From NCBI GenBank assembly GCA_018823045.1, contig JAHJIX010000002.1, positions 64,846 to 128,845 of the forward strand: a stretch of 64,000 bases of DNA, read 5' to 3'. The stretch comes from Patescibacteria group bacterium. GTDB taxonomy: Bacteria > Patescibacteriota > Patescibacteriia > Magasanikbacterales > UBA922. A program made the translations under genes and the position numbers. The notes under the pieces are model-generated. The model was given only the letters and a program-made list of their open reading frames with translations. It made no database searches and was not told where the DNA came from. Positions 10,612 through 45,718 of the stretch are shown piece by piece (position 1 is the first letter of the stretch; each line of letters begins with the position of its first letter).

Positions 10612-11575
10612 GCAATCGACTCTTTAACCCTTTTTTATGCATGACCAAAAATAAATACGTCCAAATAGCCGTGCTATATACACTAAACAAACTACCAATT
10701 GCAGCAAATAATATCATGAGAATCATGGTTGATAAAAACAACCCAACTTCCCAAAATACCGCACTGCCTAACATAAAACTAATTGCCCAAATAAATGACA
10801 TTTCTACCACAAATAAACCAACCAACACAAGAGCGGCTGCCAAAATACCAAGATTTAACAATACGACAATAAGACCAACCTCAAGTGATACCACCCAATG
10901 ATCTTTTAATAATTTCCACGCAGATTTAATTGATTTTATATATGAATATTCTTCTACCACAACATAACCTGCCGCATAGACAAGTAATACTGACACCAAT
11001 AAACCAAGCGCAACACTAACAATAAATAAAGCACCCAAACCGACACCTGCAAAGACATTATTTGTTACGGCAAGCATATAGGCAAAAGCAGCAAGCAGTA
11101 CTGATAATAGAACCGTAACAACTTTTTTACTTACATTTAGTGCAAGCAATCGCCAAAAATGTGAAACACCTTTATACCACGCTTTATCTACTTTTACATG
11201 ATGAAATTTTCCAAGTTTCAGTGATTGAATAATGCCATCAATCAGTGCTCCTTGAGATGACACTGAAACAAACAACAGTCCCAAACCAGCAGAGATAAAA
11301 AAGAGTATTAACCATACCACCCAAATCCATCCATCAGCCCCTATATTGAGCGATGTAAACAACTGTACAATTGCATGCCACCAAGAAGAAGCATCACCTA
11401 CGACAGAATAAAATACTAATCGATCATCAGCAACAGAAATACTTGAAAGAAAATCAAGCAAACCCATTTGTCCTAAAAACAGACTAAATAATCCAAATAT
11501 CCATAATGCTGGATGATACCGCACCACACGCCATGCATGTGAAAGTGCTTTACGATATGTTGGATCCTTTTTCAT
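10589..11575 (-). CDS. hypothetical polytopic membrane protein
   Basis: 328 aa with at least 7 predicted TM helices. No recognisable motif. Overlaps the pilB start. Confidence 0.4.
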   Translation of the reverse strand: MKKDPTYRKALSHAWRVVRYHPALWIFGLFSLFLGQMGLLDFLSSISVADDRLVFYSVVGDASSWWHAIVQLFTSLNIGADGWIWVVWLILFFISAGLGLLFVSVSSQGALIDGIIQSLKLGKFHHVKVDKAWYKGVSHFWRLLALNVSKKVVTVLLSVLLAAFAYMLAVTNNVFAGVGLGALFIVSVALGLLVSVLLVYAAGYVVVEEYSYIKSIKSAWKLLKDHWVVSLEVGLIVVLLNLGILAAALVLVGLFVVEMSFIWAISFMLGSAVFWEVGLFLSTMILMILFAAIGSLFSVYSTAIWTYLFLVMHKKGLKSRLLGLFKKG

Positions 11576-28851: not shown

Positions 28852-29093
28852 CAGAAAAAAAAACACCCCAGTATCGTGGTGTTTTTTTATATTATCATAA
28901 AATATTCTCTAAAAATATATTTTTTATTCACAAAAAAATAATCCACAATCATGTGGAAAAACCCTTGTAAATTTTCATAAATCTATGATATAATTTCTAT
29001 ATACATATTGGTATTTCCCCTAATACCGTATGGCAAACAAAAAACATTCGCTTTACACGGATGTTTTTTGTTTGCCCTCTTTTTAATTTCCCT

Positions 29094-29609
29094 TTACGGA
29101 AGATAGTAGGTTCGCTCATTAAGTGGATCTGTATTATCTCTATACTGGCGCTGTTCTCGATCTACTTCATCATATAAATCTCTTTCTGCATCCATATATT
29201 CACTTTGATCTCTATTGATATCATCCTCCACTAATATATTTATAACAAATGTCGTAATAGCATATGATGTTAAAATAATGACAATCCCCATTATACCACG
29301 TACCATTGTTTTTTTTCCTATTTCAATCTTTCCTTCATCTCCAGCAGCAGTCATAATCATAAATCCAGCATAAATGGTGTAAGCAAAAAATACCGTCCCG
29401 ACAAGCCCTAGGCTCGTACGGACAAGTAATGCAATTATAACACGAGGATCAGTCGCTTCACCCAAATTACCTCCATCTTTACCAGCGGTAGCCTCTAGTT
29501 GTTCTTGTAGCTCTTCCGTATATGTCGGTCCCTGCGCAACGACCTGCATTGGTTGAAACATTATTCCCAAACAAAGAATCGCAAATACACCAAACAAGAA
29601 AAAACGCAT
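29094..29609 (-). CDS. TrbC/VirB2-like pilin-family paralog A (core plus acidic C-terminal tail)
   Basis: Signal peptide; core YAGFMIMTAAGDEGK...IMGIVIILTSYAITTFV. Confidence 0.5.
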   Translation of the reverse strand: MRFFLFGVFAILCLGIMFQPMQVVAQGPTYTEELQEQLEATAGKDGGNLGEATDPRVIIALLVRTSLGLVGTVFFAYTIYAGFMIMTAAGDEGKIEIGKKTMVRGIMGIVIILTSYAITTFVINILVEDDINRDQSEYMDAERDLYDEVDREQRQYRDNTDPLNERTYYLP

Positions 29610-29613
29610 ATAA

Positions 29614-30087
29614 TTAATTTTTATATTTTAACTGACAATTAAAGTCTCCATTTCGAACCATACTCCAAAGTCCACAATCTACTTGCATATCTGTTGTTCG
29701 GTATACTTTCCCTGCAATATTGCTACTGAGTGATCGTGCAACAAATGTGGTAATGCTGTATGCCACCATAATAACAAATAATCCAATAATAGCTCGTTTT
29801 ATTGTGTCTCGTGCTTTCGATACTTTTTCTTCATTATCTCGTGCAGTGAGCAACCAATATCCAGACATAAGAACAAGTACAAAAAATATTGTGCCAATAA
29901 ATCCAAGCATCAAACGAATAAGCTCTGCAACAAATAATTGTGGTGGCACAGGAACTCCCATACCAGCAGCTCCCGCCGCAGCGCTAATTTGCTCATTTAT
30001 TTGACCAACCAATCCTTGTGCTGAAACAGTTGCTGTGATAAACAAACCCGCAAGAAGACTAAAGAAAAAAAATCGTTTCATAAACAT
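29614..30087 (-). CDS. pilin-like paralog B (core plus short 2-Cys C-terminal tail)
   Basis: Signal peptide; core SGYWLLTARDNEEK...IIGLFVIMVAYSITTFV. Confidence 0.5.
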   Translation of the reverse strand: MFMKRFFFFSLLAGLFITATVSAQGLVGQINEQISAAAGAAGMGVPVPPQLFVAELIRLMLGFIGTIFFVLVLMSGYWLLTARDNEEKVSKARDTIKRAIIGLFVIMVAYSITTFVARSLSSNIAGKVYRTTDMQVDCGLWSMVRNGDFNCQLKYKN

Positions 30088-30100
30088 AATTAAATAGATT

Positions 30101-30508
30101 TTACGGATTCAACTGAGGTGTCTGTGACGCATTAGACGATGCTGCGCTACGAGCAACAATTTTTGGCACGACAAATGCTGTAATGCTGTACGCACCCACG
30201 GTGATAATTAAACCAATAATTGCAGCTTTAATGATATCCATCGCTTTGTCTACTTTTCCTTCATCTCCTCGTGCTGTCATCCACAAATATCCTGCATAGA
30301 CCATCAACACAAGAAAGATAGTCCCCACGAAAGAAAGAAGCAAACGAATCATATATCCAACATTTTCAGCCAAAGAAATATCATTCACATTTTCATACCC
30401 TGCTTTTTCTGCCGTATCAGCTACCAGTCCAGCTCCTAGATCAATTGCATAAACAGGTAGTGCGACAAAACAGCAAAATAATGCAAGAAACACAAATATT
30501 TTTTTCAT
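30101..30508 (-). CDS. pilin-like paralog C (core only)
   Basis: YAGYLWMTARGDEGKVDKA...IIGLIITVGAYSITAFV. Confidence 0.5.
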   Translation of the reverse strand: MKKIFVFLALFCCFVALPVYAIDLGAGLVADTAEKAGYENVNDISLAENVGYMIRLLLSFVGTIFLVLMVYAGYLWMTARGDEGKVDKAMDIIKAAIIGLIITVGAYSITAFVVPKIVARSAASSNASQTPQLNP

Positions 30509-30529
30509 ACAGTTACATATAAATATTAT

Positions 30530-30898
30530 TTATTGAGGTAAAAATCGAAACAACACAAACGCATTAATTGCGTAGGCACTCATAATAATAATTAACCCAA
30601 TAATTGATGTTTTAATAATTTCCATTGCTTTTTCTACTTGCCCCTCATCTCCTCTTGCTGTCATCCATAAATATCCGGCATAGATCATCAGCACCAAAAA
30701 TATTAACCCAACCATGCTTAAAGCTAGATTAATAAATGTTCCAACCACGTTTGCCACATTTTCTTCTGCAACACCAGCTGTACCACCAGTTGTCTTTACT
30801 TTGTTTACGGCATCACCCAGTGTTGCAGTATACACTGTAGAAAATAACAAAAAGAAAGAAAAAAAACTTACAATGGCAATGCTGAATATTTTTTTCAT
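30530..30898 (-). CDS. pilin-like paralog D (core only)
   Basis: YAGYLWMTARGDEGQVEKA...IIGLIIIMSAYAINAFV. Confidence 0.5.
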   Translation of the reverse strand: MKKIFSIAIVSFFSFFLLFSTVYTATLGDAVNKVKTTGGTAGVAEENVANVVGTFINLALSMVGLIFLVLMIYAGYLWMTARGDEGQVEKAMEIIKTSIIGLIIIMSAYAINAFVLFRFLPQ

Positions 30899-30933
30899 AT
30901 ACGTATATTTAAAAAACTAGATAACACACAATA

Positions 30934-31542
30934 TTATTCTGTTGGTCCTTTTGCACAAAGTGCCTCACACTCTGGATAAGTTTTAATACCCCCATTCCAT
31001 CCCCATTCAGTATATGGATCTACGGCAGTTATTGTTTCTCCTATTAATTGACAACGCTCATAGGAATCCATACGAGCAGCCCAACTCGTTGCATATTGTC
31101 CTGTTCTATCACAGCAACAGCCCACAGGTGCACCATCAATTTGCCCTGCACTACTACCAGATGTTCCTTGTACACCAGCAACTAAACGACCAAGCACCAA
31201 ATCAACAACACCATATGATGCAATAATAACAAGCATGCCAATCGTTGCTGCAATAATAGTTTCACGTGCTTTTTCTGCTTTTCCTTCATCTCCTCTTGCA
31301 GTAATCCAACGAAAACCTGCATAAAACATGAGACCAAAAAATACCAGACCTACTAAAGTCAAAGCCCATTTAATAATTTTTCCTGTTTCTGTTTCAATAT
31401 TTGTTTGTGGAATGCCGGTTCTGCCTGATAATACTTTTACATTTGTAAATGCGTCACCAATGTCTTGTGCAGATACATCAAAAAACCAAAAAGAACCAAT
31501 ACTAATGGCAATAAGAGTTCCGTATATTGCTATTTTTTTCAT
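30934..31542 (-). CDS. pilin-like paralog E (core plus C-terminal Cys-rich ectodomain with a CCC motif)
   Basis: YAGFRWITARGDEGKAEKA...TIGMLVIIASYGV. C-terminal segment has 7 Cys. Confidence 0.5.
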   Translation of the reverse strand: MKKIAIYGTLIAISIGSFWFFDVSAQDIGDAFTNVKVLSGRTGIPQTNIETETGKIIKWALTLVGLVFFGLMFYAGFRWITARGDEGKAEKARETIIAATIGMLVIIASYGVVDLVLGRLVAGVQGTSGSSAGQIDGAPVGCCCDRTGQYATSWAARMDSYERCQLIGETITAVDPYTEWGWNGGIKTYPECEALCAKGPTE

Positions 31543-31549
31543 AGTTTTC

Positions 31550-31882
31550 TTATACTAATCCACTAAATACAAAGACAGTAATTGCATATGACGCAAGCAC
31601 AATAGCCATCCCGATAATTGCCGCGATAATAGTATCTTTTCCTTTTTCTACTTGCCCTTCATCTCCTCGTGCAGTCATCCACAAAAATCCTCCGTACACC
31701 ATAAGGATAAAAAAAAGAATCCCTATGATAGACAAAATACTTCCGACGATGCCACCGGCAAGAAGTTCAACTGTTTTACTATTTTTTAATCCTGTGCCAC
31801 CAGCTGTTTCGTTTAGTCCATACTGTGCATACACAGTAGCTGGAATAAGAAAAAAACTAAAGACACTTATAATATATTTCAT
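31550..31882 (-). CDS. pilin-like paralog F (minimal core, 110 aa)
   Basis: YGGFLWMTARGDEGQVEKG...IIGMAIVLASYAITVFV. Confidence 0.5.
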   Translation of the reverse strand: MKYIISVFSFFLIPATVYAQYGLNETAGGTGLKNSKTVELLAGGIVGSILSIIGILFFILMVYGGFLWMTARGDEGQVEKGKDTIIAAIIGMAIVLASYAITVFVFSGLV

Positions 31883-31908
31883 ATAGCTTAAACTGTATTT
31901 AAAAACTA

Positions 31909-32490
31909 CTATTCTATACCTGCATCACAACACACTATTTCATTTCCACCAGGACACAACCCTATATAACATTCATTTCCTGGAGTACAATTCTTTATTC
32001 TTTCGACTTCTGTGTCTCCAAAAACAAATGTACAATTTGCAATATTTTGACAGGCATATTTTTCATTTTGAGCAACACATTTGGCATCAGCAGCTACTGT
32101 TGGCCCCCCCGTATTATTTGTCACACTCTCAAAAATAAACTGCGTTATGGCATAAGAACTCAGCACAATGACAAGCCCAATCACGGCCGAAATGATAGTT
32201 TCTTTTCCTTTGGTGATACGTCCTTCGTCTCCTCTTGCGGTCATCCAAAGAAATCCACCATAGAGCATCAGGCCAAAAAATAATATACCCACAAAAGAAA
32301 GAGCGCCACCAATAACATCACCCACAAGTACACGAGCATCTGTGGTCTTTTTTAATTGTGTTTTTCCGACAGTTTCTCCTAAACCATAATCTTTGGGAAT
32401 AGTAATTGCTGACACAACAATAACAGACGTAAACAGTACAATAGCTGCTACTATACTTCCACATAATAAAGCAAAGTACTTTTTACGCAT
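31909..32490 (-). CDS. pilin-like paralog G (core plus C-terminal Cys-rich ectodomain ending GLCPGGNEIVCCD)
   Basis: Core identical in parts to paralog H, with about 150 bp of near-identical DNA. Confidence 0.5.
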   Translation of the reverse strand: MRKKYFALLCGSIVAAIVLFTSVIVVSAITIPKDYGLGETVGKTQLKKTTDARVLVGDVIGGALSFVGILFFGLMLYGGFLWMTARGDEGRITKGKETIISAVIGLVIVLSSYAITQFIFESVTNNTGGPTVAADAKCVAQNEKYACQNIANCTFVFGDTEVERIKNCTPGNECYIGLCPGGNEIVCCDAGIE

Positions 32491-32517
32491 ATAAAACGCA
32501 ATTATACATAGTATTAT

Positions 32518-33090
32518 TTAATCACAACACACTATTTCATTTCCACCAGAACACAACCCCCTTTGACACTGCCAATCAAATTGACCACAAGCATTTAAAA
32601 ACTCACTTATAGGAAGAGTTGGATCACTCATTTCTGCTCCTAGCGTAGAACATTGTTTAATATTTTTACAACTCCAACCAGGATTTACCTGTTCACAAGT
32701 TGCGGTAGGTCCCTCCTGTTGCTGATTGCCAGAAACACTCTCAAAAATGAACTGAGTAATAGCATAAGAACTGAGCACAATGACAAGCCCAATCACGGCC
32801 GAAATGATAGTATCTTTTCCTTTTGTGACATGTCCTTCGTCTCCTCTTGCGGTCATCCAAAGAAAACCACCATAGAGCATCAGGCCAAAAAACAATACAC
32901 CCATAAAAGATAAGGCGCCACCAACAACATCACCAACAAGTATACGCACGTCTGTTGATTTGTTTAATTTTGCTGTACTTGCAGCTTCACCTAAACCATA
33001 ATCAGCAGCTGAAACGATGAGGACAGACGTAAACAATACAATAGCGACTGCTACACTTCCGAGTAAGAGCTGAGAGTACTGTTTACGCAT
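32518..33090 (-). CDS. pilin-like paralog H (core plus C-terminal Cys-rich ectodomain ending GLCSGGNEIVCCD)
   Basis: YGGFLWMTARGDEGHVTKG...VIGLVIVLSSYAITQFI. Confidence 0.5.
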   Translation of the reverse strand: MRKQYSQLLLGSVAVAIVLFTSVLIVSAADYGLGEAASTAKLNKSTDVRILVGDVVGGALSFMGVLFFGLMLYGGFLWMTARGDEGHVTKGKDTIISAVIGLVIVLSSYAITQFIFESVSGNQQQEGPTATCEQVNPGWSCKNIKQCSTLGAEMSDPTLPISEFLNACGQFDWQCQRGLCSGGNEIVCCD

Positions 33091-33107
33091 ATAAGCAATA
33101 GTTATAA

Positions 33108-33521
33108 TTATGATTGTGGTGGATTAACGATAACATAATCATCTGCACCTGTTGAAGCTTTGTATAACTCTTTAATAACAAATGTACTAATTGAGTACGC
33201 GGTAAGAATAATCACTAACCCAACTACAGCTGCCGAAAGAATTCCTTTTGCAGTACCAATTTGATCTTCTTTCCCTGCAGCTGTCATCCATAAAAATCCA
33301 GCATAGATAACAAGAACTAACATGATTGTTCCTAAAATTCCAAGCCCTGCATTAATAATCTTTGCAACAGTAATACGTACGTCTGTATTTGTTAATCCAC
33401 TTTGACCAGCATACCCAACCCCAAGCAAATCATCATCTGCTGCTTGTGCAAGTGCAGGTGCTGCAGTAAATAAACCAAATGCGAGAACCAAGCCCAATAG
33501 GGCGCTTAACATGTATTTCAT
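33108..33521 (-). CDS. pilin-like paralog I (core)
   Basis: YAGFLWMTAAGKEDQ...VVGLVIILTAYSISTFV. Confidence 0.5.
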   Translation of the reverse strand: MKYMLSALLGLVLAFGLFTAAPALAQAADDDLLGVGYAGQSGLTNTDVRITVAKIINAGLGILGTIMLVLVIYAGFLWMTAAGKEDQIGTAKGILSAAVVGLVIILTAYSISTFVIKELYKASTGADDYVIVNPPQS

Positions 33522-33636
33522 ATGTGTAAATAAAATATAATATAATTATGAATACGCGTTGACAGTGAGAGCCTACGCCTACTCATAATGATAAGATCTG
33601 GGAAGAACTAATTTCTCCCCAGATACATAATCATAA

Positions 33637-34095
33637 TTAGATTTCGTAATCTGCGCCTGTCACACCAGTTTTTACTGCTAAATTTACAAGTACAAAACGA
33701 GCAATTGCCCATGCACTCATAATAATAGCCAAACCGATAACACCAGCAAAAATTAATTTTCTTGCTTCAGCTGTTTTTTCTTCACTTCCACCTGCTGTCA
33801 TCCATTTGAAACCACCAGCAAGTACGATTACAACAGCAATAATACCAAGTAAGCTTAACGCTACATTGATAATACTTGCTACAGTCTCTGGCAAACTATT
33901 TTTACCGAGAGCTAGAGTACTATTATCAATTCTATCGATTCCAATAGGGTCAGTTTCACTACCACTAACAGCTCCTCCTGCTGGAGGTTGTGCTTGTGCG
34001 CTCGCAATTACTGGGGCAAGCACCACTGTTAATACAATCGCAACGATTATACCAAAAGCTTTGTTATATTTTCGTAATAAATTCACATGTCTCAC
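33637..34095 (-). CDS. pilin-like paralog J (core)
   Basis: AGGFKWMTAGGSEEKTAEA...VIGLAIIMSAWAIARFV. Confidence 0.5.
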   Translation of the reverse strand: MRHVNLLRKYNKAFGIIVAIVLTVVLAPVIASAQAQPPAGGAVSGSETDPIGIDRIDNSTLALGKNSLPETVASIINVALSLLGIIAVVIVLAGGFKWMTAGGSEEKTAEARKLIFAGVIGLAIIMSAWAIARFVLVNLAVKTGVTGADYEI

Positions 34096-34118
34096 CCCCT
34101 TTCTTTTGTAGGATCATA

Positions 34119-34784
34119 TTATTTACTAATAGTCTTTAAGAATGCCTGTAGTATACCATATGCAGAAAAAATAACAAAGAGACCAATCACTGCATAAAGC
34201 ATTGTCTTTGTTCCTTTGGAAACTTTTTCTTGATTACCGGCCGAAGTCATCCACATCACGCCACCAGCAAAAAATACAGCAAATACAACTGCTCCAATAA
34301 CAGCTAACATATACTGAATAATTCTTCCAGCAAAGGCAGGGATAGATATTGGTTTTTTAGGATCACCACCTAATGGGTTTTGGAGTGTCACCACGTTTGG
34401 GTCTTTGTAGTTTGATGATGTTGGAGTTTCAACGATAGAACATGTAAGTCTATAGTGTTCCTGAACATTATTTTCTCTTAATACCGTATATTGAGTACCA
34501 GTAAATTTTGCACAACTATCCTTTGTTATTTTTTTATCTGGGATAGGAGTAGCTACTGTTGCCAATTCAGTTCTTACCAATTCATCTTTTAATTTTTTAT
34601 CAAAATAAAGCGTAACACTTTTTTCCTTTCTTTCAGCAGCAATTCCTATAGTATATGAAGCTGTACATGTACAAGCATTTGTTGTTGCAATCTGTGCAGA
34701 AACAACTGCAGGCATAATCAAAAATGCACATAATACAAACACACCCACACAGAAATACACAAGTTTTTTATATCTATCTATCAT
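34119..34784 (-). CDS. pilin-like paralog K (N-terminal Cys-containing ectodomain plus C-terminal core)
   Basis: The core AGGVMWMTSAGNQEKVSKG...VIGLFVIFSAYGILQAF sits at the C-terminus, an inverted domain order. Confidence 0.5.
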   Translation of the reverse strand: MIDRYKKLVYFCVGVFVLCAFLIMPAVVSAQIATTNACTCTASYTIGIAAERKEKSVTLYFDKKLKDELVRTELATVATPIPDKKITKDSCAKFTGTQYTVLRENNVQEHYRLTCSIVETPTSSNYKDPNVVTLQNPLGGDPKKPISIPAFAGRIIQYMLAVIGAVVFAVFFAGGVMWMTSAGNQEKVSKGTKTMLYAVIGLFVIFSAYGILQAFLKTISK

Positions 34785-34792
34785 AAAATTTC

Positions 34793-35758
34793 TTACTTAA
34801 TGACTCGAAAATCAGAAGCAACACCCAAAGCATCTAACAGGGTATCTACTAATAAATAAGCACCCAGAGCAATAATAATACCAACAACAGCTGCAATTAA
34901 AATTTGCTGCCCTTGTTTAAACTTTTCTGCATTGCCAAAAGAGGTGATCATCACTACACCGCCATACATAAACATGAGAAATGCAACAGTACCAATAATT
35001 GATAGTAATAATTGAGCGGCATTAATACCCAGTAATAGCAAATCATTAATATCTCGACACCCTCCATAAGTAAATGCACAATCTGGAATAACGCCGTCAT
35101 AACCAGCCGGTTTTGATCTTGTTGGGTCAACAGCATCTCCTGTATTAGTAAAAGCAGCAGATCCTTTGCCTATACAATTTTGATATTCAGGTTCACAAAC
35201 ATTTTTCATCTGTAATTTTTCTCCAGCTGTTAAAGGATACGGAATTCCTTTTTTATCTCCATCATCAATCAGTGCCCAAATTTCTGCACATTTTGGCTGC
35301 TTTATTTTAACTGCATCATAACAAGCAAGACTTTCTTTTTTTTCTTGCGCTGCATTAGCTTGTGCTTGTTGAGGAGTCATTGTAGGTGTACAACGCACTT
35401 CATATCCTGCCGTAACTACTCCAGCTGCCTTTACAGTTATAATCCAATCATTCGATAATTGAACACGATACCCAACACCAGCAACAGTACCATTACTTGG
35501 TGTAGATTTTAGTGCTATAGATAAAGCCTGCCCCATATTTCTATCAACACTGACAATCTTTTCTATATCTACTCCTGTATCTGCTAAAGGTATTGAAACA
35601 CAAACATTCTTTGTTACATTATAACCCTGTGTTTTTTTTATGCACTCTATCATTTTTTCGCCACTATTTGGCGGTGCACCACAAGCAGCAAAAACACTCT
35701 CAGGCACTACAAGCCCTACCATCAATACAGCAAATAAACATATTAAATATTTTTTCAT
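34793..35758 (-). CDS. pilin-like paralog L (large N-terminal Cys-rich ectodomain plus C-terminal core)
   Basis: Likely start MKKYLICLFAVLMVG (signal peptide). C-terminal core YGGVVMITSFGNAEK...VVGIIIALGAYLLV. The ORF track extends to 35791. Confidence 0.5.
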   Translation of the reverse strand: MKKYLICLFAVLMVGLVVPESVFAACGAPPNSGEKMIECIKKTQGYNVTKNVCVSIPLADTGVDIEKIVSVDRNMGQALSIALKSTPSNGTVAGVGYRVQLSNDWIITVKAAGVVTAGYEVRCTPTMTPQQAQANAAQEKKESLACYDAVKIKQPKCAEIWALIDDGDKKGIPYPLTAGEKLQMKNVCEPEYQNCIGKGSAAFTNTGDAVDPTRSKPAGYDGVIPDCAFTYGGCRDINDLLLLGINAAQLLLSIIGTVAFLMFMYGGVVMITSFGNAEKFKQGQQILIAAVVGIIIALGAYLLVDTLLDALGVASDFRVIK

Positions 35759-35759
35759 A

Positions 35760-37133
35760 TTACATGCTTTGTTGAATGCGGGCAGCCGCACTATTAATTA
35801 ATGTTTCATCTCGCTCTTGCTGATCAATATCAAGTGGGACAGGTCGTCTATATGCATCAATAAGTTCACGAAGTGCCTCATCTGCTTTTGCACTATCTCG
35901 TCCATAATACCAGTTTGTTGCAGTCAAAATTTGAGAAACAAATGGTGCAATTAACGGATCTTCTGCTTGATCTGCTAACTGACTTCTAAGCGGTGAAGGT
36001 AAACCAACAGCTGTTGTATATGATTTGATATTATTTGGTGTTGAAATAAAACGCACAAAATCCCATGCAATATCTTGATGTTTTGATTTAGCCACGACTG
36101 ACTCAACCCAATAATTTGCAACATTTATGGCTTCCTTCCCCTGTAGTTGTGGCACTGGCACAATACTTAGATTCATTTGTGGTGCTTTTGCTTTTATGCG
36201 GGCTTTGTCATATGCAAATCCAAAGTAAAAGACACTTTGCTGATTGGCAAAGACATCAAGTGCAGTATCAAAATTATCATTCCAAGTATATACATCTCGA
36301 GTAGAGCGAGCAAAATCAGTATAAAAACGCAAAGCCTGAAGTGTTGGGTGTGTTTCTCTTAAACGCTTAATATCTTGCGCAAAAGTCACATAACCAGGTT
36401 GTGTAATATTGACTTCATTTTGAAGCATTAAGAGCGCCAAAATATCTGTTGCATTATCTATATTATATGCTGTCCCCATAGAAGCACCTGCTTGCAAAAT
36501 AGTACCATTAATATCTTTCTTGGTTGTTTTTACAATCGTCTCCATAAACTCATCCCACGTTGTTGGGGGCACAGCAACTCCTGCACGATCAAGCAAATCT
36601 GTATTGTAATACAGCGCAAGCGTATCTACAGCAAGCGGCAAACCATATATTTGATTGTCAATAACAACGTCTCCTGCAACAGTACCCACAAAACTTGTTT
36701 TTAATGTATTGACCGTAGGCAATGCATGTGTTTCAAAATTGACCACCTGCTCCTGTGCATATTTTCCTTCAATCGTCATACGCGCCATCTGTACCTGTGC
36801 TGGCATCGGAGATAATCGTGGCTGATATGTTCGCACTGCACGATTATGCACAGAAATAATATCTGGGGCGATATCATCAGCTAGTGCGTTTACAAACAAA
36901 TCATCAAATTCTTCATAACGTACTTGACGGATATTAACTGTCACATGTGGATAGCGTGCATTATATTCTGCAGCAAAAGCACGTAATTGTGCTACATTAT
37001 TAAAAACGGTCCAATAATTAATCGTTACTGGTCGAACAGCAATACGCTCTGCGTCAGTTAGGCCCTTACACCCAACACCCGTACTCAACAAGACTATTGG
37101 AATAAGGAAAAATGTCATGAATTTTTTAAACAT
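35760..37133 (-). CDS. ABC transporter substrate-binding protein (sugar-binding, MalE-like family 1), orphan
   Basis: Lipoprotein-like signal ending GVGC. YGLPLAVDTLALYYNTDLL and WDEF motifs. No permease or ATPase genes adjacent. Confidence 0.6.
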   Translation of the reverse strand: MFKKFMTFFLIPIVLLSTGVGCKGLTDAERIAVRPVTINYWTVFNNVAQLRAFAAEYNARYPHVTVNIRQVRYEEFDDLFVNALADDIAPDIISVHNRAVRTYQPRLSPMPAQVQMARMTIEGKYAQEQVVNFETHALPTVNTLKTSFVGTVAGDVVIDNQIYGLPLAVDTLALYYNTDLLDRAGVAVPPTTWDEFMETIVKTTKKDINGTILQAGASMGTAYNIDNATDILALLMLQNEVNITQPGYVTFAQDIKRLRETHPTLQALRFYTDFARSTRDVYTWNDNFDTALDVFANQQSVFYFGFAYDKARIKAKAPQMNLSIVPVPQLQGKEAINVANYWVESVVAKSKHQDIAWDFVRFISTPNNIKSYTTAVGLPSPLRSQLADQAEDPLIAPFVSQILTATNWYYGRDSAKADEALRELIDAYRRPVPLDIDQQERDETLINSAAARIQQSM

Positions 37134-37167
37134 ATATGCTGATTACATTAAAAAGTTCATCTAAATA

Positions 37168-38166
37168 TTACACCCCAAGTGACCCAAAAATAAATTTCAC
37201 AATGGCATATGCACTAAACACAACCACTAAACCAAGCGCTGTCCACACCATAATCTCTTGTGCTTTTTTTTCTTTGTCAGCGTGTCCTGCCGCAGTCATC
37301 CAAAGTACACCTGCATAAATCATAAGCGCAAGTGCCACAGTACCAAGCATGCCTGTTGCCCATAAAATCATTTGCCCAATAGCTTGTGGTAAACTTTTGG
37401 CACTTAAACGATTTAATTGTTGTAATCCAGAGGCAACTTCAGAAGAAATCCCTGCAGCTTGCCCTTCTGTTGTTGGTTTTGTCGGTGTTGCTGACTCTGG
37501 TGCTTTTGTTAGCCACTCACAATTAAATAATTTTTGACCCGCTATTGATTGTCCTGTACTACTTTTACAAGTGTTTTTATGCTCTAATGTTAAAGACAAA
37601 CTTGGTATTTTACGTTTATCTGCTTTTTCTGTAGCAATGCTACAATAACATCCTTCTGCTGCACTATATGATCCGACTTCTTTTGGTGCAGTCCAACTAG
37701 AAGAATCTCTCAAACATTCAATACTTTTTATATTACAAGCCTCATAATTCCAAGTATTAGCTGTAGGTACTTCTGAATAGTTCCATACGCATAACTTTAG
37801 CGAAGGAAGCTCTATGACACTAGACATATCTTTCTTACATTTTTCATTAATAACACAATCATCATGAGTGCGTTTGCAATCTGCAGTATTCCAATTTTTT
37901 GTTTGAAAATTAAATTCACAAGGATTCAAACTATCTACATATACCACACAAATAGATTGCCCGCTATACTTCGCCAGACAACTATTCATTGCATCTTCAC
38001 ACAATTGCATATTCCAAGAACCAACCGCTGTGAGAGTGCAACCATTAATACCTAACACTGTTTTTTTACAAATATCATTATTATACTGTGCTTTCACAAC
38101 CCCAACTACCCCCATCTGCACGACAATGAGAAAAAGAAATATTGTGAGGCGGGTAGTCAGTTTCAT
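37168..38166 (-). CDS. pilin-like paralog M (large N-terminal Cys-rich ectodomain with about 22 Cys, plus C-terminal core)
   Basis: C-terminal core YAGVLWMTAAGHADKEKKA...ALGLVVVFSAYAIVKFI. Confidence 0.5.
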   Translation of the reverse strand: MKLTTRLTIFLFLIVVQMGVVGVVKAQYNNDICKKTVLGINGCTLTAVGSWNMQLCEDAMNSCLAKYSGQSICVVYVDSLNPCEFNFQTKNWNTADCKRTHDDCVINEKCKKDMSSVIELPSLKLCVWNYSEVPTANTWNYEACNIKSIECLRDSSSWTAPKEVGSYSAAEGCYCSIATEKADKRKIPSLSLTLEHKNTCKSSTGQSIAGQKLFNCEWLTKAPESATPTKPTTEGQAAGISSEVASGLQQLNRLSAKSLPQAIGQMILWATGMLGTVALALMIYAGVLWMTAAGHADKEKKAQEIMVWTALGLVVVFSAYAIVKFIFGSLGV

Positions 38167-38169
38167 AGA

Positions 38170-39042
38170 TTAAAATAAATGTGAAATTTGGTTTTTAATA
38201 TCTTTGTCTTTCATTGCAAAGTGCAATGTTGTTTTGAGCAAAGCAATTTTATTTCCGGTATCAAAATATGTTCCTTCATATTCATATGCAAGGAACTTTT
38301 TCTTTTTTGCCAGATCATCAGCAGCATCTGCCACCCAAATTTCTCCATCTTTCCCTTGCCCCTGTTTTTCTAACAGTGGCCAAATATCTTTCGTAAAAAT
38401 ATAGCGCATACCGCCAACAATTAATCCGTGAGGAGACACTTTTTTTACTGATGGTTTTTCTTTAAATTCTGTCACACGAAATGTTCTATCTTGTCTGAGT
38501 GGTTTCCCATACACATTTCCGTATTTTGTCATGGCTTCTTTATCTTCTAAACGCTGTACACCAATGACCGGGCTCCCTTGTTTTTTATATACAGAAATCA
38601 ATTGCTTAATGACAGGTGTCTTTGCGTCAATAATACTATCCCCATCTGAAAAAGCAAATGGCTCATCTCCTATAAACTCTTTTGCACAAAGCATCGCGTG
38701 ACCATTCCCAAGTGGCTGAGATTGTCTCGTATAAAAAAAACGAACTTTTTTAGATAACTCAATCAATGAATCTAGACGATCCAACTTTCCTTTTTCTTCT
38801 AATGTTTTTTCAAAATCAAAATCACGATCAAAATGATTTTCAATCGCATCTTTTTGTGCACTGGTGACAAAAATAATTTCTTTAATACCACTTGCCGCCA
38901 TTTCTTCAACAATATATTGCACTACCGGTTTATCGAGCACAGGCAACATTTCTTTTGGCATAGCTTTTGTTGCAGGTAAAAAACGAGTCCCCATTCCTGC
39001 TACAAGAATAATCCCCTTTCGTACCGGACGAGTCTTTGCCAT
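38170..39042 (-). CDS. galU: UTP--glucose-1-phosphate uridylyltransferase
   Basis: LVAGMGTRFLPATKAMPKEMLPV signature. About 290 aa. Confidence 0.85.
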   Translation of the reverse strand: MAKTRPVRKGIILVAGMGTRFLPATKAMPKEMLPVLDKPVVQYIVEEMAASGIKEIIFVTSAQKDAIENHFDRDFDFEKTLEEKGKLDRLDSLIELSKKVRFFYTRQSQPLGNGHAMLCAKEFIGDEPFAFSDGDSIIDAKTPVIKQLISVYKKQGSPVIGVQRLEDKEAMTKYGNVYGKPLRQDRTFRVTEFKEKPSVKKVSPHGLIVGGMRYIFTKDIWPLLEKQGQGKDGEIWVADAADDLAKKKKFLAYEYEGTYFDTGNKIALLKTTLHFAMKDKDIKNQISHLF

Positions 39043-39114
39043 ATGTCTATGCAATTTAAAAATATAGATAATCTAATATCAGTATACCATTTACGAACAA
39101 AAAAACCAATATAT

Positions 39115-39570
39115 TTATATACTTTCAAGCAATGCTTCTACTTTTTTTTCTGCCTCTGCTTGAATCTCTTTCGTCATAACACCTCCATGCATCTTTGCTA
39201 ACTCTTGTGCATGTGCCGCAACGAGCTCCCCTCGCATAAGTATTAATTCTTTTTTATGTGTTGCAATTTGTTTTTTTAAAGCATCTGCTCGTGCTTGATC
39301 TTGCACAGAAGCGGTATCATCATCTCCGTCAACCAACTGTAATTGCTGACGAATCTTTCTAATCACCTGCCGCACTTGCGCTATGTGAATAAGAATACTT
39401 TGCATCTGCTTTGTACCTGTTTGCACTTCTTTTACGAGATATTCTGCCCGTTCACGCATGGCAGCTGCTCGTGCTTCTGGATCAAGCTCTCCTGATTTTT
39501 CTGTTTCTTTTACTTCATAACTTCTTTCTTTTTCTGTTGTAGAAATTTTAAATTCTTGATTTTCAGCCAT
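39115..39570 (-). CDS. hypothetical coiled-coil protein
   Basis: 151 aa, charged, heptad-like. No motif recognised. Confidence 0.4.
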   Translation of the reverse strand: MAENQEFKISTTEKERSYEVKETEKSGELDPEARAAAMRERAEYLVKEVQTGTKQMQSILIHIAQVRQVIRKIRQQLQLVDGDDDTASVQDQARADALKKQIATHKKELILMRGELVAAHAQELAKMHGGVMTKEIQAEAEKKVEALLESI

Positions 39571-41139: not shown

Positions 41140-41829
41140 ATGCTATACTATGAAGGATTATTTATCCTCTTTATGTCAAAAATATTTTATCCGCTTATTT
41201 GCCTTATTTGTAGCATTATTCCTCTGCAACTCCATGCAGCAATGACTGGCGGTGATTTTGAAATCTATGCGGATGTCTTTTCTACCATAGAAGAGCATGT
41301 TGTCAGTGGTGGAGATTATGACTTATATGGAACATCGGGTGAATTTGGCACAGAAATGCCTTCTGGTGGTGATTATGTCTTACGTGCAGGATTTCAAGCT
41401 ATGGAAAGAGAATCTTTATCACTCACACTTGATAAAAATGCCATTGATTTAGGCGCACTAACTTCTGATGCTATTTCTTCAGATACATTGACCTGCACAG
41501 TCACTACTGATGCTATTTCTGGCTATAACATTACTATTTCTGAAGACACTGATCTACAAACAGGCACAGGCCTTGAAATTGATGATGTTATTGATGGTGA
41601 AGTAACAGCAGGTTCAGAAGAATATGGTATAAAAACAGCAGGCACCGCAGGACAATATAATGCCGCTGACACAGCGATATTAAGCACAACAAAAATTATT
41701 GCGCAACAAGTTGGTGCCGTTTCAAGCCAAGACACCGGAGTCATCTTCCGTGCTGCAGCTGATGCTGCTGCAACAGAGGCAGGAAACTATAGTCACACGG
41801 TCACATTTACTGCGACCATTAATTTATAG
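41140..41829 (+). CDS. hypothetical secreted protein
   Basis: Signal-peptide-like N-terminus. Internal GGDY(D/V)L repeats. Confidence 0.4.
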   Translation: MLYYEGLFILFMSKIFYPLICLICSIIPLQLHAAMTGGDFEIYADVFSTIEEHVVSGGDYDLYGTSGEFGTEMPSGGDYVLRAGFQAMERESLSLTLDKNAIDLGALTSDAISSDTLTCTVTTDAISGYNITISEDTDLQTGTGLEIDDVIDGEVTAGSEEYGIKTAGTAGQYNAADTAILSTTKIIAQQVGAVSSQDTGVIFRAAADAAATEAGNYSHTVTFTATINL

Positions 41830-41832
41830 GCT

Positions 41833-42699
41833 ATGAAACATTTATCACCTCTTTATCAACTATCTCTTGGCTTGCTTTGTGTATTAGCCTGTTTTTTTTA
41901 TCCACAGGATACCCAAGCACTCAGTATTACACCTGCCAGACAAACAGCGATTGTTGATGCCAGCGGAGCAACAATTGTTCCACTTTTCATTACAAATAAC
42001 ACAACAAAAAGTATTGTTGTTCTGCCAACAGTAGAAGCTTTTACCATCGAAGATACCACCCAAACTATTTTATGGAATAAAACAGACCCTGCAATTTCTT
42101 GGGTGACAACACCGGTAAAAAAAAGTCAACTTGATCCAGGAGAAAGCATTCAAGTAAATTTTACAGTAACAATACCCAGCAGTACACCACCAGGTGCACA
42201 CTATTTAGGTCTTTTTGCACAAGAGTTTAGCTATGATGGCCAAGTAGCGGTAAACTCTCGTGTTGCTTCTCTTTTTTTCTTACATGTCGCAGGCCCAGTA
42301 TATGAAACAGTGCAACTTGAAGAAATAAACACTCCACATATTTCTTTTACAAAAAATACCCAACTCAACATCCGCCTAAACAATATCGGTAACATGCATG
42401 TCTTCCCTACTATAGATATTAAACAACGCTCTCTCGGATCAAAACAAGAACTTGTTTTTGAAGAAACACATATTCCTTTTTTAGCAAAGACACAAAAAAA
42501 TAGCATATACACTATTCCACTCACCTGGAAAGACATTGGTAAAAATACTCTTGCATTAGATATCGAATATGGAGCAACAAACAAGCATATCACCAGAAAC
42601 ATATCTCTTTGGTATCTTCCCATTCCTTTTATTAGCGTATTCATTATTATTTTTATCAGTATATTGCTTTTCTTTATAAAAAAGACTCGTTCATCCTAA
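41833..42699 (+). CDS. hypothetical cell-surface protein with C-terminal TM anchor
   Basis: Signal peptide. C-terminal LPIPFISVFIIIFISILLFFIKK. Confidence 0.4.
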   Translation: MKHLSPLYQLSLGLLCVLACFFYPQDTQALSITPARQTAIVDASGATIVPLFITNNTTKSIVVLPTVEAFTIEDTTQTILWNKTDPAISWVTTPVKKSQLDPGESIQVNFTVTIPSSTPPGAHYLGLFAQEFSYDGQVAVNSRVASLFFLHVAGPVYETVQLEEINTPHISFTKNTQLNIRLNNIGNMHVFPTIDIKQRSLGSKQELVFEETHIPFLAKTQKNSIYTIPLTWKDIGKNTLALDIEYGATNKHITRNISLWYLPIPFISVFIIIFISILLFFIKKTRSS

Positions 42700-42709
42700 T
42701 TTTTTCTCT

Positions 42710-45700
42710 ATGAGATTTTCTCGCATATCTATTTTTCTTTTAGGTGTTATTGTCAGCTCACTGTGTTTTTTGGGCATGCAATATGCTCTAGCAGAAGATA
42801 TTAACGTTACTGTTACAGTCGAAACAGCAATACTCTGCGGAAATGGAACAATCGATGGAGGGGAAACCTGTGATGGAACGAACTTTGGTGCCGAGACCTG
42901 TGTCACACAAGGGTTTGATACCGGCAGTCTTACTTGTTCAGCAGGCTGTCTTATCGAAACAACATCTTGTTCAAATAATACTGGTGGAGGAGGCGGTGAC
43001 TATATTGCTCCAGTTGTCATTATTACAAGTACAGCAACCACACAAACAACCGCTAACGTCGACTGGACAGCCACCGATAATAGTGGGGTTATCCAAGCAT
43101 GTAGCTTTGAGTATGGCACAACTATTGCCCTTGGAACCATTGCTCCTCAGGTTGATCGTGTATTAAATGTATTTGATACTGCTCTTGGCGGTCTCACACC
43201 AGATACAACATACTTTTTTGAAATTGATTGTGTTGATCCTTCAGGAAACCACGGCACTGCACAAGGAACATTCTTAACAACACCGACTGTCTCCCCCGCC
43301 TGCGGAGATGGAATACATGATAGCTTTTCAGAAGAATGTGACGATGGAAATCTTATAAATGGTGATGGTTGCTCTGCAACCTGTACTATTGAAGGACGCA
43401 TTCCTATCTGTGGAGATGGAATTATTGATGGTGTCATTTTTGGAATAGAAGAATGTGATGATGGAAATGTTCAAGATGGTGATGGCTGTTCTGCAATTTG
43501 TCTTCTAGAAGGAGCAGGACCAATCTGTGGAAATGCCATTTTAGAAATAGGAGAAACCTGTGATGATGGAAACCTTATAGATGGTGACGGATGCACTGCC
43601 ACCTGTTTAGCTGAAATTGGCCCAGGAGAAGAAGGATGTGGAGATGGTATTATTCAACTCGGAGAAACCTGCGACGATGGAAATATACTAAATGGAGATG
43701 GGTGTTCTGCAATTTGTCTTCTAGAAGGAGCAGGACCAATCTGTGGAAATGCCATTTTAGAAATAGGAGAAACCTGTGATGATGGAAACCTTATAAATGG
43801 TGACGGATGTACTGCCACCTGTTTAGCTGAAAGTGGCCCACCTGGCGGTGGAGATAGCATCTGTGGAAACGCCGTACTTGAAGCAGGTGAGATGTGTGAC
43901 GATGGAAACACAAACAACGGAGATGGATGCTCTGCTACTTGTTTAAATGAGCAAGGCCCACCCGGTGGTGGAAATAACAATTGTGGAAACACACTCCTTG
44001 AAGGCGGCGAAGAATGTGATGATGGAAATACACTAAATGGAGATGGGTGTTCTGCCATGTGTCTTCTTGAAGGAATACTTCCTCCAGCCCCTGGAGAAGA
44101 ACTCGAACTGAGAGACTTTGCCTTTTGGCTTTCTCAAAGAACAATTGGGACAACACTTACTCCTGAAGATGAATTAGTGAGTCTTGCAGGAGATATTGTT
44201 ACTATTAGTGTTGCCGAACAAGATCTTTCATTTCGTGTCATTGAAGACATGCATTTAACAGTTGATGGTGCGTCATATCCATTCTTTTATCAAGAGGCAG
44301 ATGGACGCTACTATGCTGATGCATTTATGCCAATTATACCAAATTCATACCCAACAGTTATTGTCGTTGACTATGAAGGTGGTGTCCGTGATATTGTTCG
44401 CTTAACGTTTGACAGTCTTCCATTTGGACAAACAACGGATCAAGTAACTGGAAATATTTTGCCACAAGTACAGATTGAAATATATGAAGAAGCTCAACAA
44501 AACCTTTGGCAAGCCCCAATTTTTAAACAAATCAATCCTGTACAAGTACGAAATGATGGAACGTATGGATTTGTTGTTCCAAATGGAACATATAAAATTG
44601 TCGCCTTACGTGACGGATATAATAAAAAAGAAACACCCTTTTTCCAAGTAAATAATCATGTTATTAATGAACAATTAACACTCCTTGAACTTCTCCCCGA
44701 AGACGCAACAGCAGTAGAACGTATTGGACATAGCTTTGAACAAGGAAAAGAATTAGTAGCAAATACCTTATTTGCAATTGAAAACATTACAAATAACCCT
44801 ACAGTTGAACAAGTTGCTGAACAAATTGTTCCTCCAGTATCAACCGCTCTTGTTGCCGTAGCACTCCTTCCTTCACTTTGGAATTTACTTGGAACAATAT
44901 TCCGTTTTCTCTTTTTGCAACCGTTTCTCTTCTTTGGAAAAAAGAAAAGAAAAGCATGGGGATTGGTGTATAATAGTTTAAATAAACTTCCAATTGATTT
45001 AGCAACCGTTCGTTTGCTTGACGCAAAAACACAACATATTATTCAATCACGAGTCACTGATGAAGATGGTCGTTTCTTATTTGTTGTTCCAGCAGGAGTG
45101 TATCGTATTGAAGTACGCAAACCTGGATTTGTATGTCCTTCCAAACTAGTTACCGTAGAAACAGATGGAGATTTACTTGATATTTACCACGGAGAACAAA
45201 TTACCGTTGAAGAAGAAACACGTATCACCCCAAACATTCCAATTGATCCTGAAGATGCCAAAGAAACTCCATCAAGAATTGCATGGAATAAGCGATTTTT
45301 GATACTACAATACACACTCTCTATTATTGGAATTTTAGGATCAATTATTGCCTTTTATATAGCACCAGGTATGCTCACTGCAATATTTATTCTCATTCAC
45401 ATTCTCTTGTTCTTAATATTCCTTCGATTTATTTATCCACCAAAACCAGAAAGTTGGGGAATTGTATACGATCAAGACAATCATAAACCAGTCGGAAAAG
45501 CAGTCCTTCGACTATTTAATCATGAATATAACCGTTTAGTATCAACACGAATGACCGATTCAAGAGGAAGGTATTCTATGCTCTTAGGAGCAAGTACCTA
45601 TCACTTTACCGTAGAAAAAGATGGGTATACTGTTTACACCAGTGATCCGATTAAAGTAAATACTGTTGATAAAGAAGGTATACTTACGCAACATGTTCCA

Positions 45701-45718
45701 CTAAAAAAAAATAACTAA
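42710..45718 (+). CDS. large surface protein with about 7 Cys-rich repeats (CGxGxxxxGExCDDGNxxxGDGCSxxC, Myxococcus-type), about 3 carboxypeptidase-regulatory-like beta-sandwich domains and C-terminal TM helices
   Basis: Signal peptide MRFSRISIFLLGVIVSSLCFLGMQYALA. Repeat motif read directly. GRFLFVVPAGVYRIEV-type beta-sandwich signatures. Confidence 0.65.
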   Translation: MRFSRISIFLLGVIVSSLCFLGMQYALAEDINVTVTVETAILCGNGTIDGGETCDGTNFGAETCVTQGFDTGSLTCSAGCLIETTSCSNNTGGGGGDYIAPVVIITSTATTQTTANVDWTATDNSGVIQACSFEYGTTIALGTIAPQVDRVLNVFDTALGGLTPDTTYFFEIDCVDPSGNHGTAQGTFLTTPTVSPACGDGIHDSFSEECDDGNLINGDGCSATCTIEGRIPICGDGIIDGVIFGIEECDDGNVQDGDGCSAICLLEGAGPICGNAILEIGETCDDGNLIDGDGCTATCLAEIGPGEEGCGDGIIQLGETCDDGNILNGDGCSAICLLEGAGPICGNAILEIGETCDDGNLINGDGCTATCLAESGPPGGGDSICGNAVLEAGEMCDDGNTNNGDGCSATCLNEQGPPGGGNNNCGNTLLEGGEECDDGNTLNGDGCSAMCLLEGILPPAPGEELELRDFAFWLSQRTIGTTLTPEDELVSLAGDIVTISVAEQDLSFRVIEDMHLTVDGASYPFFYQEADGRYYADAFMPIIPNSYPTVIVVDYEGGVRDIVRLTFDSLPFGQTTDQVTGNILPQVQIEIYEEAQQNLWQAPIFKQINPVQVRNDGTYGFVVPNGTYKIVALRDGYNKKETPFFQVNNHVINEQLTLLELLPEDATAVERIGHSFEQGKELVANTLFAIENITNNPTVEQVAEQIVPPVSTALVAVALLPSLWNLLGTIFRFLFLQPFLFFGKKKRKAWGLVYNSLNKLPIDLATVRLLDAKTQHIIQSRVTDEDGRFLFVVPAGVYRIEVRKPGFVCPSKLVTVETDGDLLDIYHGEQITVEEETRITPNIPIDPEDAKETPSRIAWNKRFLILQYTLSIIGILGSIIAFYIAPGMLTAIFILIHILLFLIFLRFIYPPKPESWGIVYDQDNHKPVGKAVLRLFNHEYNRLVSTRMTDSRGRYSMLLGASTYHFTVEKDGYTVYTSDPIKVNTVDKEGILTQHVPLKKNN
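43487..43832 (+). repeat. intragenic tandem duplication (two about 130-bp near-identical units, period 216 bp)
   Basis: 43487..43616 versus 43703..43832 differ at about 4 positions. Confidence 0.7.

Follow-up and report, generated by a model that had tools for sequence, protein, structure and literature searches.

The locus that we describe here, which is summarized in Table 1, lies in a 64-kb window (64,000 nucleotides of contig JAHJIX010000002.1, assembly GCA_018823045.1) of the chromosome of a Patescibacteria, or candidate phyla radiation (CPR), bacterium related to Uhrbacteria and Magasanikbacteria, and joins, as an unusually large case, the VirB2 pilin arrays known from this phylum. Its thirteen paralogous genes, A to M, all encode members of PF18895, a pilin family of type IV secretion systems (T4SS). 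The locus is probably a chromosomal operon of VirB2-like T4SS pilins that would serve as the subunits of a pilus-like filament or conduit built by a VirB4 machinery. The array goes beyond the published accounts that we found by its 13 genes, the conserved cassette in which it is embedded, the positional orthology of its members between relatives, and the occurrence at either end of the core of ectodomains with even numbers of cysteines. These features leave the kind of system unchanged: it is still a patescibacterial pilin array.

The family assignment comes from the module that the proteins have in common. A block of about 78 amino acids (aa) made of two hydrophobic helices aligns across all thirteen pilins, with the consensus Y.GFLWMTARGDEGK..KA..TI..A.IGL.II..AYAI..FV, which includes invariant Gly and Thr positions. 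A hidden Markov model (HMM) derived from this core and run against all six-frame open reading frames (ORFs) of the window retrieved exactly the 13 array ORFs, with E-values from 1e-25 to 1e-36, a similarity far beyond chance. PF18895 is matched by every one of the proteins at E<=0.01. Individual scores were obtained for 11 members (all but L and M), nine of which, at 29-43 bits, exceed the gathering score of 26.6 bits, A and I falling just short of it; L and M carry a precomputed PF18895 annotation and are 100% identical to NCBI proteins that are both named 'pilin [Patescibacteria group bacterium]'. Matches to the NCBIfam model NF045849, a pilin-like conjugal transfer protein of Mycoplasma integrative and conjugative elements (ICE), were obtained for 12 of the 13 (best E 9.9e-8); they stay below threshold, with about 25 bits for the member shown against a 40-bit cut-off, and the proteins do not belong to that family.

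A more distant relationship of the core to the VirB2/TrbC pilins is suggested by the comparison of profiles. When a 36-sequence core profile was aligned by hhalign with that of eight authentic VirB2/TrbC proteins from plasmids of mating-pair formation class MPF_T, whose genes were each fetched from between a VirB1-type gene and virB3, the match covered both helices (65 columns, probability 77.7%, E 1.9e-5), although hydrophobic helices can inflate such scores, and it paired GFLWMTA of the core with GISWMFGR of VirB2. The AlphaFold2 (AF2) model of mature pilin D consists of two long antiparallel helices (H22-56 and H61-95; predicted local distance difference test score, pLDDT, 76.5). With A. 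tumefaciens VirB2 and RP4 TrbC (PF04956) the array proteins have in common the signal peptide, the two helices, the short loop and a W-M motif ending the first helix; they differ from them by the lack of adjacent VirB1, VirB3 and VirB4, by many paralogues in place of one, by the large ectodomains and by a monoderm host.

The variable parts of the proteins are most probably exposed. By hydropathy and the -3/-1 rule, all thirteen begin with a Sec-type signal peptide, behind which lie two more hydrophobic helices. This arrangement puts the mature N- and C-termini both outside, whether the signal peptide is cleaved or not, and N- and C-terminal extensions alike would thus be extracellular, as the initial annotation of this DNA had assumed, and not cytoplasmic. 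The outward topology fits the total absence of Cys from the cores, the even number of mature Cys in every Cys-containing extension (2, 4, 6, 8, 8, 10 and 16), and the reported enrichment of CPR genomes in MdbA/VKOR-type extracytoplasmic disulfide machinery (bioRxiv 10.1101/335083). Extensions are carried by eight members, the largest being 228 aa long with 16 Cys. Five of them (A, B, E, G, H) have C-terminal additions and three (K, L, M) N-terminal domains, in agreement with the initial annotation, which had however counted six core-only members where there are five (C, D, F, I, J; all Cys-free, with about 14-30 aa preceding the core and 0-15 aa following it) and up to about 22 Cys where the maximum is 16; a relative does reach 21. 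Of the C-terminal additions, those of B, E, G and H contain Cys (2-8), the tail of A being Cys-free. In a Pfam scan, no family was matched by any ectodomain. A search for homologues of M among 5.8 billion proteins returned M itself and one 46%-identical protein, so that the M ectodomain appears to be essentially an orphan, and a search with the C-terminal tail of G alone gave no candidates. The subfamily of pilin L is marked by a conserved PDCAFxxGxCRDINDLL motif preceding the core and by a hypervariable N-terminal domain; the AF2 model of full-length L, built with eight homologues, has a mean pLDDT of 49.6, with values of about 25-30 over most of the ectodomain.

The array belongs to a cassette that is conserved in relatives and consists of a GalU-like gene, a pilin gene, a gene for a sugar-type solute-binding protein (SBP) and 11-12 further pilin genes. 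The full cassette (GalU-like, pilin, SBP, L-type pilin, further pilins) was found at four other loci: L011, L022, L024 (Magasanikbacteria GCA_018647845.1) and L025. The SBP gene is followed by 12 pilin genes in the complete array of the window and by 11 in each of the complete arrays of L011, which ends at EpmA like the window, and L022; six are present in L024 and three or four in L025, whose contigs end within the array. Between the window and L011 the orthology is positional and gene for gene (identities in Table 1; 60% for EpmA), except that H and G have the same single L011 gene as their match. The cores are 59-82% identical to those of the L011 orthologues and the ectodomains 26-43%, the short tail of B excepted (85%), a contrast already implied by the initial annotation; the core-only members, with 58-73% identity over their full length, are the best conserved. 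L011 and L022 also have the architecture of the window, in which the array opens with the members bearing N-terminal domains, continues with core-only members and has those with C-terminal Cys tails further on, and the truncated contigs L024 and L025 agree with it over the part that they cover. It follows from this positional orthology that the architectures are old and fixed and that only the ectodomain sequences diverge fast. To speak of a module shuffled to either end of variable domains and of a diversifying display system, as had been done, was therefore an overstatement.

Neither is the locus without a described counterpart, as had been thought, since patescibacterial VirB2-like arrays, including interrupted ones, have been published (PMC12102498, PMC10633639, PMC12857230). 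A survey by Quinonero-Coronel et al. (2025, PMC12102498) reports, from 383 Patescibacteria assemblies, 441 'VirB2 arrays' that comprise 2-11 PF18895/PF04956 genes and are defined by at least two such genes in tandem or with one non-pilin gene between them; the present locus, with 12 genes plus one beyond the SBP gene, falls within this definition, and published arrays are likewise sometimes interrupted by one non-pilin gene. In Southlakia epibionticum, a series of six pilin genes (SEML1_0014-0019), all PF18895 and essential, lies inside a Gram-positive-like T4SS cluster devoid of relaxase and coupling protein (Wang et al. 2023, PMC10633639). With these arrays and with the 'Sec-secreted array' of TM7x, the locus shares the family, the phylum, the signal peptide followed by two helices, and the tandem, co-directional arrangement of highly diverged paralogues. 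Core identity averages 34% here, the published average over the full length being 25%; between G and H it reaches 78%, the published maximum over the full length being 54%, a value measured on another basis. The array differs from the published ones by its 13 genes, as compared with 2-11, and by its eight extended members, extensions being undiscussed in the accounts of those arrays that we found; it differs from that of Southlakia in that it is not adjacent to virB4 and sits in the GalU-like/pilin/SBP/pilins cassette.

Other systems are more remote. The Mycoplasma ICE proteins Mbov_0395 and MMCAP2_0565 (NF045849) are matched by 12 of the 13 pilins across the whole 80-position model and likewise occur in a wall-less or monoderm lineage with MPF_FATA-type systems, but they are single-copy proteins of a mobile element, whereas the genes here form a chromosomal array. 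The VirB2 clusters of Rickettsiales and Bartonella also comprise several tandem diverged copies in a host-dependent bacterium, and a broader interaction with the host surface has been proposed for them (cited in PMC12102498); their pilins are of the PF04956 type, in diderm MPF_T systems, without fused Cys-rich domains, whereas here the order and identity of the paralogues are conserved between relatives. Type IV pili offer only an analogy: their major and minor pilins have a shared hydrophobic assembly module and variable outer domains, some of them large and of the tip type, and are specialized paralogues encoded together, as here, but they have one N-terminal helix with a prepilin-peptidase site, another fold and another machinery, without homology, and the PilB of the window is encoded separately.

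In the mechanism that we propose, each pilin would be exported by the Sec pathway and lose its signal peptide, and its two helices would form a membrane hairpin whose charged loop (ARGDEGK..K) is cytoplasmic and whose termini both face outward. A monoderm-type (MPF_FATA-like) VirB4 machinery encoded elsewhere would extract the subunits and assemble them into a pilus-like filament or a conduit towards a host cell. In the solved conjugative pili (F-pilus and T-pilus), the loop between the helices lines the lumen and the termini point outward. With this geometry the five core-only paralogues would plausibly be the bulk subunits, the tailed paralogues would decorate the surface, and K, L and M, with their large N-terminal domains, would more plausibly be tip or low-copy subunits, the disulfide-bonded ectodomains of either kind making contact with host surfaces. 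The positional orthology argues for specialized, non-redundant roles rather than for a repertoire of variants. The sugar-type SBP, a probable lipoprotein, and the GalU-like enzyme would be accessory to the surface structure, or may be merely syntenic. The locus would thus offer concrete candidates for filament-building subunits, for host-contacting subunits and for a possible participation of an SBP. The T4SS and pilin array are essential in the sole genetically tractable Patescibacterium, in which their role is described as 'completely unknown' (PMC11665869), and thirteen fixed-order paralogues with slow cores, fast disulfide-bonded outer domains and an SBP partner make a rich natural example in which to address it.

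Several observations weigh against this assignment of function. VirB4, VirB6, VirD4 and PrgI were not found in the window when Pfam was run on its likely genes (from about 110 aa upwards) and NCBIfam on those that Pfam left unmatched, a negative that bears out the initial annotation as to the first three; nor was VirB4 found in about 7.7 kb further upstream of the window, where the genes are all housekeeping. The neighbours of the array are the GalU-like, SBP, EpmA, EF-P and tRNA genes and not the virB3/virB4 of a virB/trb operon, and no T4SS gene occurs within up to 10 kb on either side of the arrays in six relatives. Since no T4SS gene lies near the array, what links it to a T4SS is an assumption drawn from the family's name and from other classes. 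That the core is of the T4SS-pilin type, as the initial annotation proposed, is borne out by PF18895, and a likeness to TrbC/VirB2 is suggested, though not conclusively, by the hhalign match with its W-M motif; PF04956 itself is matched by D (E 0.11), I (E 0.089) and K (E 0.053) alone, at 13-14 bits for a gathering score of 27.9, and by none of the 13 at E<=0.01. A Foldseek search of the PDB with the AF2 core model gave nothing at E<=0.001 (best E 2.1), the Aeropyrum pernix conjugation pilus 8dfu ranking 39th (E 5.6, TM-scores 0.54/0.61), a two-helix hairpin being too simple to discriminate, and the core sequence profile matched no solved T4SS pilin in the PDB. We know of no precedent in solved conjugative pili for a 200-aa N-terminal domain on a helical-hairpin subunit. 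Finally, no filament of PF18895 proteins has been visualized, and the existence of a pilus in these monoderms is termed an 'intriguing possibility' in a review of 2025 (PMC12857230). On the other hand, pilin genes are near virB4 in just 1135 of 1948 assemblies (PMC12102498), so that an array distant from the T4SS is not exceptional. The PDB sequence matches that were obtained, to designed 'Pizza' repeat proteins, are spurious and due to a short GxxWxT motif.

The distance from T4SS genes, which in this clade are never adjacent to the array, would also fit a hairpin that is only a membrane anchor displaying variable Cys-rich adhesin domains, independently of any T4SS and without a filament, as the initial annotation proposed. 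Fast-evolving, disulfide-rich ectodomains and termini predicted outward would suit such a display. We nevertheless consider it rather unlikely: the five core-only members have nothing to display and yet are the best conserved, the constraint on the core exceeds plain hydrophobicity, as the conserved GFLWMTA.G..K loop illustrates, and the family is embedded in a T4SS cluster, and essential, in Southlakia.

The recurrent company of the SBP gene raises the question of a function in carbohydrate capture. Homologues of this SBP, which is distantly related to oligosaccharide-binding proteins according to its PDB sequence relatives, Pfam and NCBIfam, are encoded beside pilin arrays at L001, L005, L006, L011, L022, L024 and L025, that is, in lineages labelled Uhrbacteria, Magasanikbacteria, Brennerbacteria and Saccharibacteria. 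The Uhrbacteria locus (L001) comprises a GalU-like gene, the SBP gene and six pilin genes, the Brennerbacteria locus (L005) the SBP gene and two pilins, and the Saccharibacteria locus (L006) the SBP gene and three; at L002 and L004, six pilin genes lie a few kb from the SBP gene. Four Chloroflexi SBP loci have no array. The place of the GalU-like gene is taken by homologues of it in L001, L002 and L004 and by NTP_transferase genes in L022, L024 and L025. A cassette of this kind could encode a heteropolymeric surface filament or conduit in which the paralogues hold fixed positions, M, L and K form a host-recognizing tip and the orphan SBP is an integral glycan-binding part, that is, an organelle capturing nutrients or host glycans and standing apart from, or loosely coupled to, the T4SS gene cluster, but we regard this as quite unlikely. 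That the hairpin proteins, joined in a membrane or envelope assembly, work with the SBP and the GalU-like enzyme in the capture or uptake of carbohydrate, without any secretion system, seems to us very unlikely. No ABC permease gene was seen beside the SBP gene in the window and the GalU-like head of the cassette is conserved, both in line with such an assembly, but the conserved adjacency may reflect inherited synteny only, the SBP homologue of Falkowbacteria (L003) has no array within 10 kb, the array cluster of Southlakia is without an SBP gene, and there is no known precedent.

An antigenic or phase-variation repertoire, comparable to the VirB2 clusters of Anaplasma and Bartonella or to pilE/pilS-like cassettes, in which one pilin would be expressed and the others serve as a recombination reservoir, is an analogy raised in PMC12102498. 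Among the 13 cores the identity averages 34% (range 18-78%) and is highest between neighbours (H-G-F 59-78%, D-C 60%), a pattern that old tandem duplication leaves behind. The sole recent pair of the array is that of G and H, a lineage-specific duplicate. Their DNA is 87% identical over a 269-nt stretch, about 170 nt of it nearly identical, and 90% identical over a 48-nt 3' stretch; their synonymous divergence (dS) amounts to 0.57 for the signal peptide and pre-core region, 0.31 for the core, 1.23 for the variable tail (nonsynonymous divergence, dN, 0.83) and 0 for the last 15 codons. This mosaic fits patchy gene conversion or a replacement of the tail, and the signs of duplication or conversion that the initial annotation had read from the near-identical stretch are upheld. 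Gene conversion would be in line with a variation repertoire, but all thirteen genes are complete, with start codons and signal peptides, lie 4-35 bp apart and are probably co-transcribed, silent truncated cassettes and meaningful inverted repeats were not found in the array, and the strict one-to-one positional orthology at 41-73% identity indicates an ancient and stable set. Each of the six Southlakia paralogues is, moreover, individually essential (PMC10633639), and we hold such a repertoire to be highly improbable.

Barely credible, finally, is the idea that these are holin-like or generic two-helix membrane proteins matching PF18895 through their hydrophobic composition, although A and I score just under the Pfam gathering score and the fold search yields many generic helical hairpins: all thirteen match the same model over the same region and no holin or other family at E<=0.01, bar scattered single transporter matches (the initial annotation had named an unrelated family, such as holins, as the outcome that would overturn it), the conserved loop motif aligns with the W-M-F-G-R region of VirB2, and the 24,986 representative clusters retrieved by the core profile at E<=1e-10 (76,600 at E<=1e-3) attest a genuine family.

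The best matches of the core profile, all outside the window (P0011-P0160), are single ORFs with 2-17 tandem pilin cores; P0014 (1775 aa), for instance, contains 17 hairpins separated by Cys-containing linkers, without internal signal peptides. The multi-core ORFs that we checked are all singleton clusters; such ORFs could represent genuine polyproteins or else arrays fused by read-through.

Table 1. Features of the pilin array and its cassette, in the order of the minus strand; the last column gives the amino acid identity to the orthologue at the related locus L011.
Feature	Position	Strand	Description	Basis	Identity
GalU-like gene	38170..39054	-	Nucleotidyltransferase, encoded 3 bp upstream of M; conserved at the cassette's head	Pfam PF00483 (NTP_transferase)	
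Pilin M	37168..38166	-	N-terminal ectodomain of 228 aa (16 Cys) between a signal peptide and the C-terminal PF18895 core; gene located between the GalU-like and SBP genes	Core HMM; identical to MBU1721259.1	
SBP gene	35760..37133	-	Sugar/oligosaccharide-type solute-binding protein (SBP_bac_1/8) encoded within the array as its conserved partner; probably a lipoprotein	Pfam, NCBIfam, PDB sequence relatives	74%
Pilin L	34793..35758	-	N-terminal ectodomain of about 211 aa (10 mature Cys) and core	Identical to MBU1721257.1	41%
Pilin K	34119..34784	-	114-aa N-terminal ectodomain (4 Cys) and core	PF18895 36.0 bits	41%
Pilin J	33637..34095	-	Core-only; GTG start	PF18895 43.4 bits	66%
Pilin I	33108..33521	-	Core-only	PF18895 25.6 bits (slightly below gathering score 26.6)	65%
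Pilin H	32518..33090	-	Core and 67-aa C-terminal tail (8 Cys), C-terminal end GLCSGGNEIVCCD; recent paralogue of G	PF18895 32.4 bits	54% (same gene as G)
Pilin G	31909..32490	-	Core and 66-aa C-terminal tail (8 Cys); recent paralogue of H	PF18895 34.1 bits	50% (same gene as H)
Pilin F	31550..31882	-	Core-only; L011 orthologue with Cys-rich tail	PF18895 36.0 bits	64%
Pilin E	30934..31542	-	Core and 80-aa C-terminal tail (6 Cys, GCCCD motif)	PF18895 35.3 bits	49%
Pilin D	30530..30898	-	Core-only; mature protein modelled as a helical hairpin	PF18895 36.5 bits	58%
Pilin C	30101..30508	-	Core-only	PF18895 29.3 bits	73%
Pilin B	29614..30087	-	Core and 34-aa tail with one Cys pair; tail 85% conserved in the orthologue	PF18895 33.9 bits	66%
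Pilin A	29094..29609	-	Core and 42-aa acidic Cys-free tail; final gene of the array	PF18895 23.8 bits (under gathering score)	51%
Hairpin	29032..29076	.	19-bp stem with T/A runs, immediately downstream of A; probably a bidirectional terminator that ends the operon		

The ORF listing gives thirteen co-directional pilin genes on the minus strand, twelve of them contiguous (labelled A to L by coordinate order, M being the thirteenth) and one separated from this run by the single non-pilin gene. The tandem array, the embedded SBP gene and the galU gene at its head had been correctly recognized in the initial annotation, the last being a GalU-like NTP_transferase. Within the 12-gene run the intergenic spacing is 4-35 bp, save for 115 bp between J and I, and such tight spacing suggests a single operon from the GalU-like gene, or from the 151-aa ORF that precedes it, through A. 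The J-I interval, the sole long gap, contains a hairpin with a 12-bp stem (33596-33624, minus strand), which may be an internal attenuator or terminator dividing the operon into a head (M-J) and a tail (I-A). A promoter scan detected sites no more frequently than in shuffled sequence. Before the SBP gene, the GalU-like gene and 12 of the pilin genes, no Shine-Dalgarno sequence is recognizable (29094-39054); the regions upstream of the array genes are AT-rich, and J alone, with a GGGG run, may be an exception.

The window as a whole is low-GC (about 0.36) housekeeping chromosome, with genes for ribonucleotide reductase, RuvB, ThrRS and transketolase; the array is preceded by the S6, SSB and S18 genes and followed by those for EF-P, EpmA and then four tRNAs. 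An exact database match to the SBP protein was not found. Sugar-type SBP genes without an adjacent ABC permease gene stand next to PF18895 arrays in several Patescibacteria lineages, an association unmentioned in the T4SS survey paper. The 151-aa ORF between S18 and the GalU-like gene (39115-39570, minus strand) is coiled-coil-like and matches no family; a counterpart with 42% identity occupies the equivalent place in the Magasanikbacteria contig L024.

A diversity-generating retroelement was considered as a source of the ectodomain variation and set aside, as no scanned ORF of the window matches a reverse-transcriptase family, although five ORFs of 328-678 aa are without any Pfam match and a few short ORFs fell outside the scan. 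In two relatives, a small gene resembling 23S_rRNA_IVP/bAvd lies directly upstream of the GalU-like gene and array (L025 5729-6100 and L026 705-1076), bAvd being a type of accessory protein of diversity-generating retroelements.

In Southlakia, a seventh, non-essential PF18895 pilin adjoins an STT3/PglB-like oligosaccharyltransferase (SEML1_0023-0024; PMC10633639 supplement). Taken together, this neighbour and the GalU-like gene of the present cassette are hints that the pilins might be glycosylated.

About 3 kb from the array, the region 41140-45718 may be a second surface-filament locus. It begins with a 229-aa ORF (41140-41829, plus strand) that has sub-threshold NCBIfam matches to CPR_pilus_PamT and Pam_pilin_C (E 5e-10), followed by a 288-aa ORF (41833-42699) and by a 1002-aa protein (42710-45718) with seven Cys-rich acidic repeats (DUF4215/myxo_disulf_rpt) and CarboxypepD_reg domains. 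The Pam pili of CPR bacteria (bioRxiv 2026) were rejected as the identity of the array itself, being made of Ig-like donor-strand-exchange pilins unrelated to the core. Type IV pilus genes are also present: the ATPase PilB (T2SSE, 8890-10611) is encoded between ORFs of 401 and 328 aa without family matches (7698-11575, minus strand), and in L022 such genes (T2SSE, T2SSF and N_methyl pilins) adjoin the S6-SSB-S18 genes and the array cassette. Elsewhere in the window, three consecutive ORFs of 678, 577 and 473 aa (36-5401, plus strand) gave no Pfam match and a single negligible NCBIfam match (E 0.0035), and two Fic/DOC-domain proteins, one of them with an HTH domain, are encoded within 4 kb (12978-13961 and 16965-17897, minus strand). 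A 1227-aa protein (52466-56149, minus strand) with five lamin-tail domains, PKD domains, an OB-fold and a weak similarity to the extracellular nucleases ExeM/NucH is a candidate surface DNA-scavenging nuclease.

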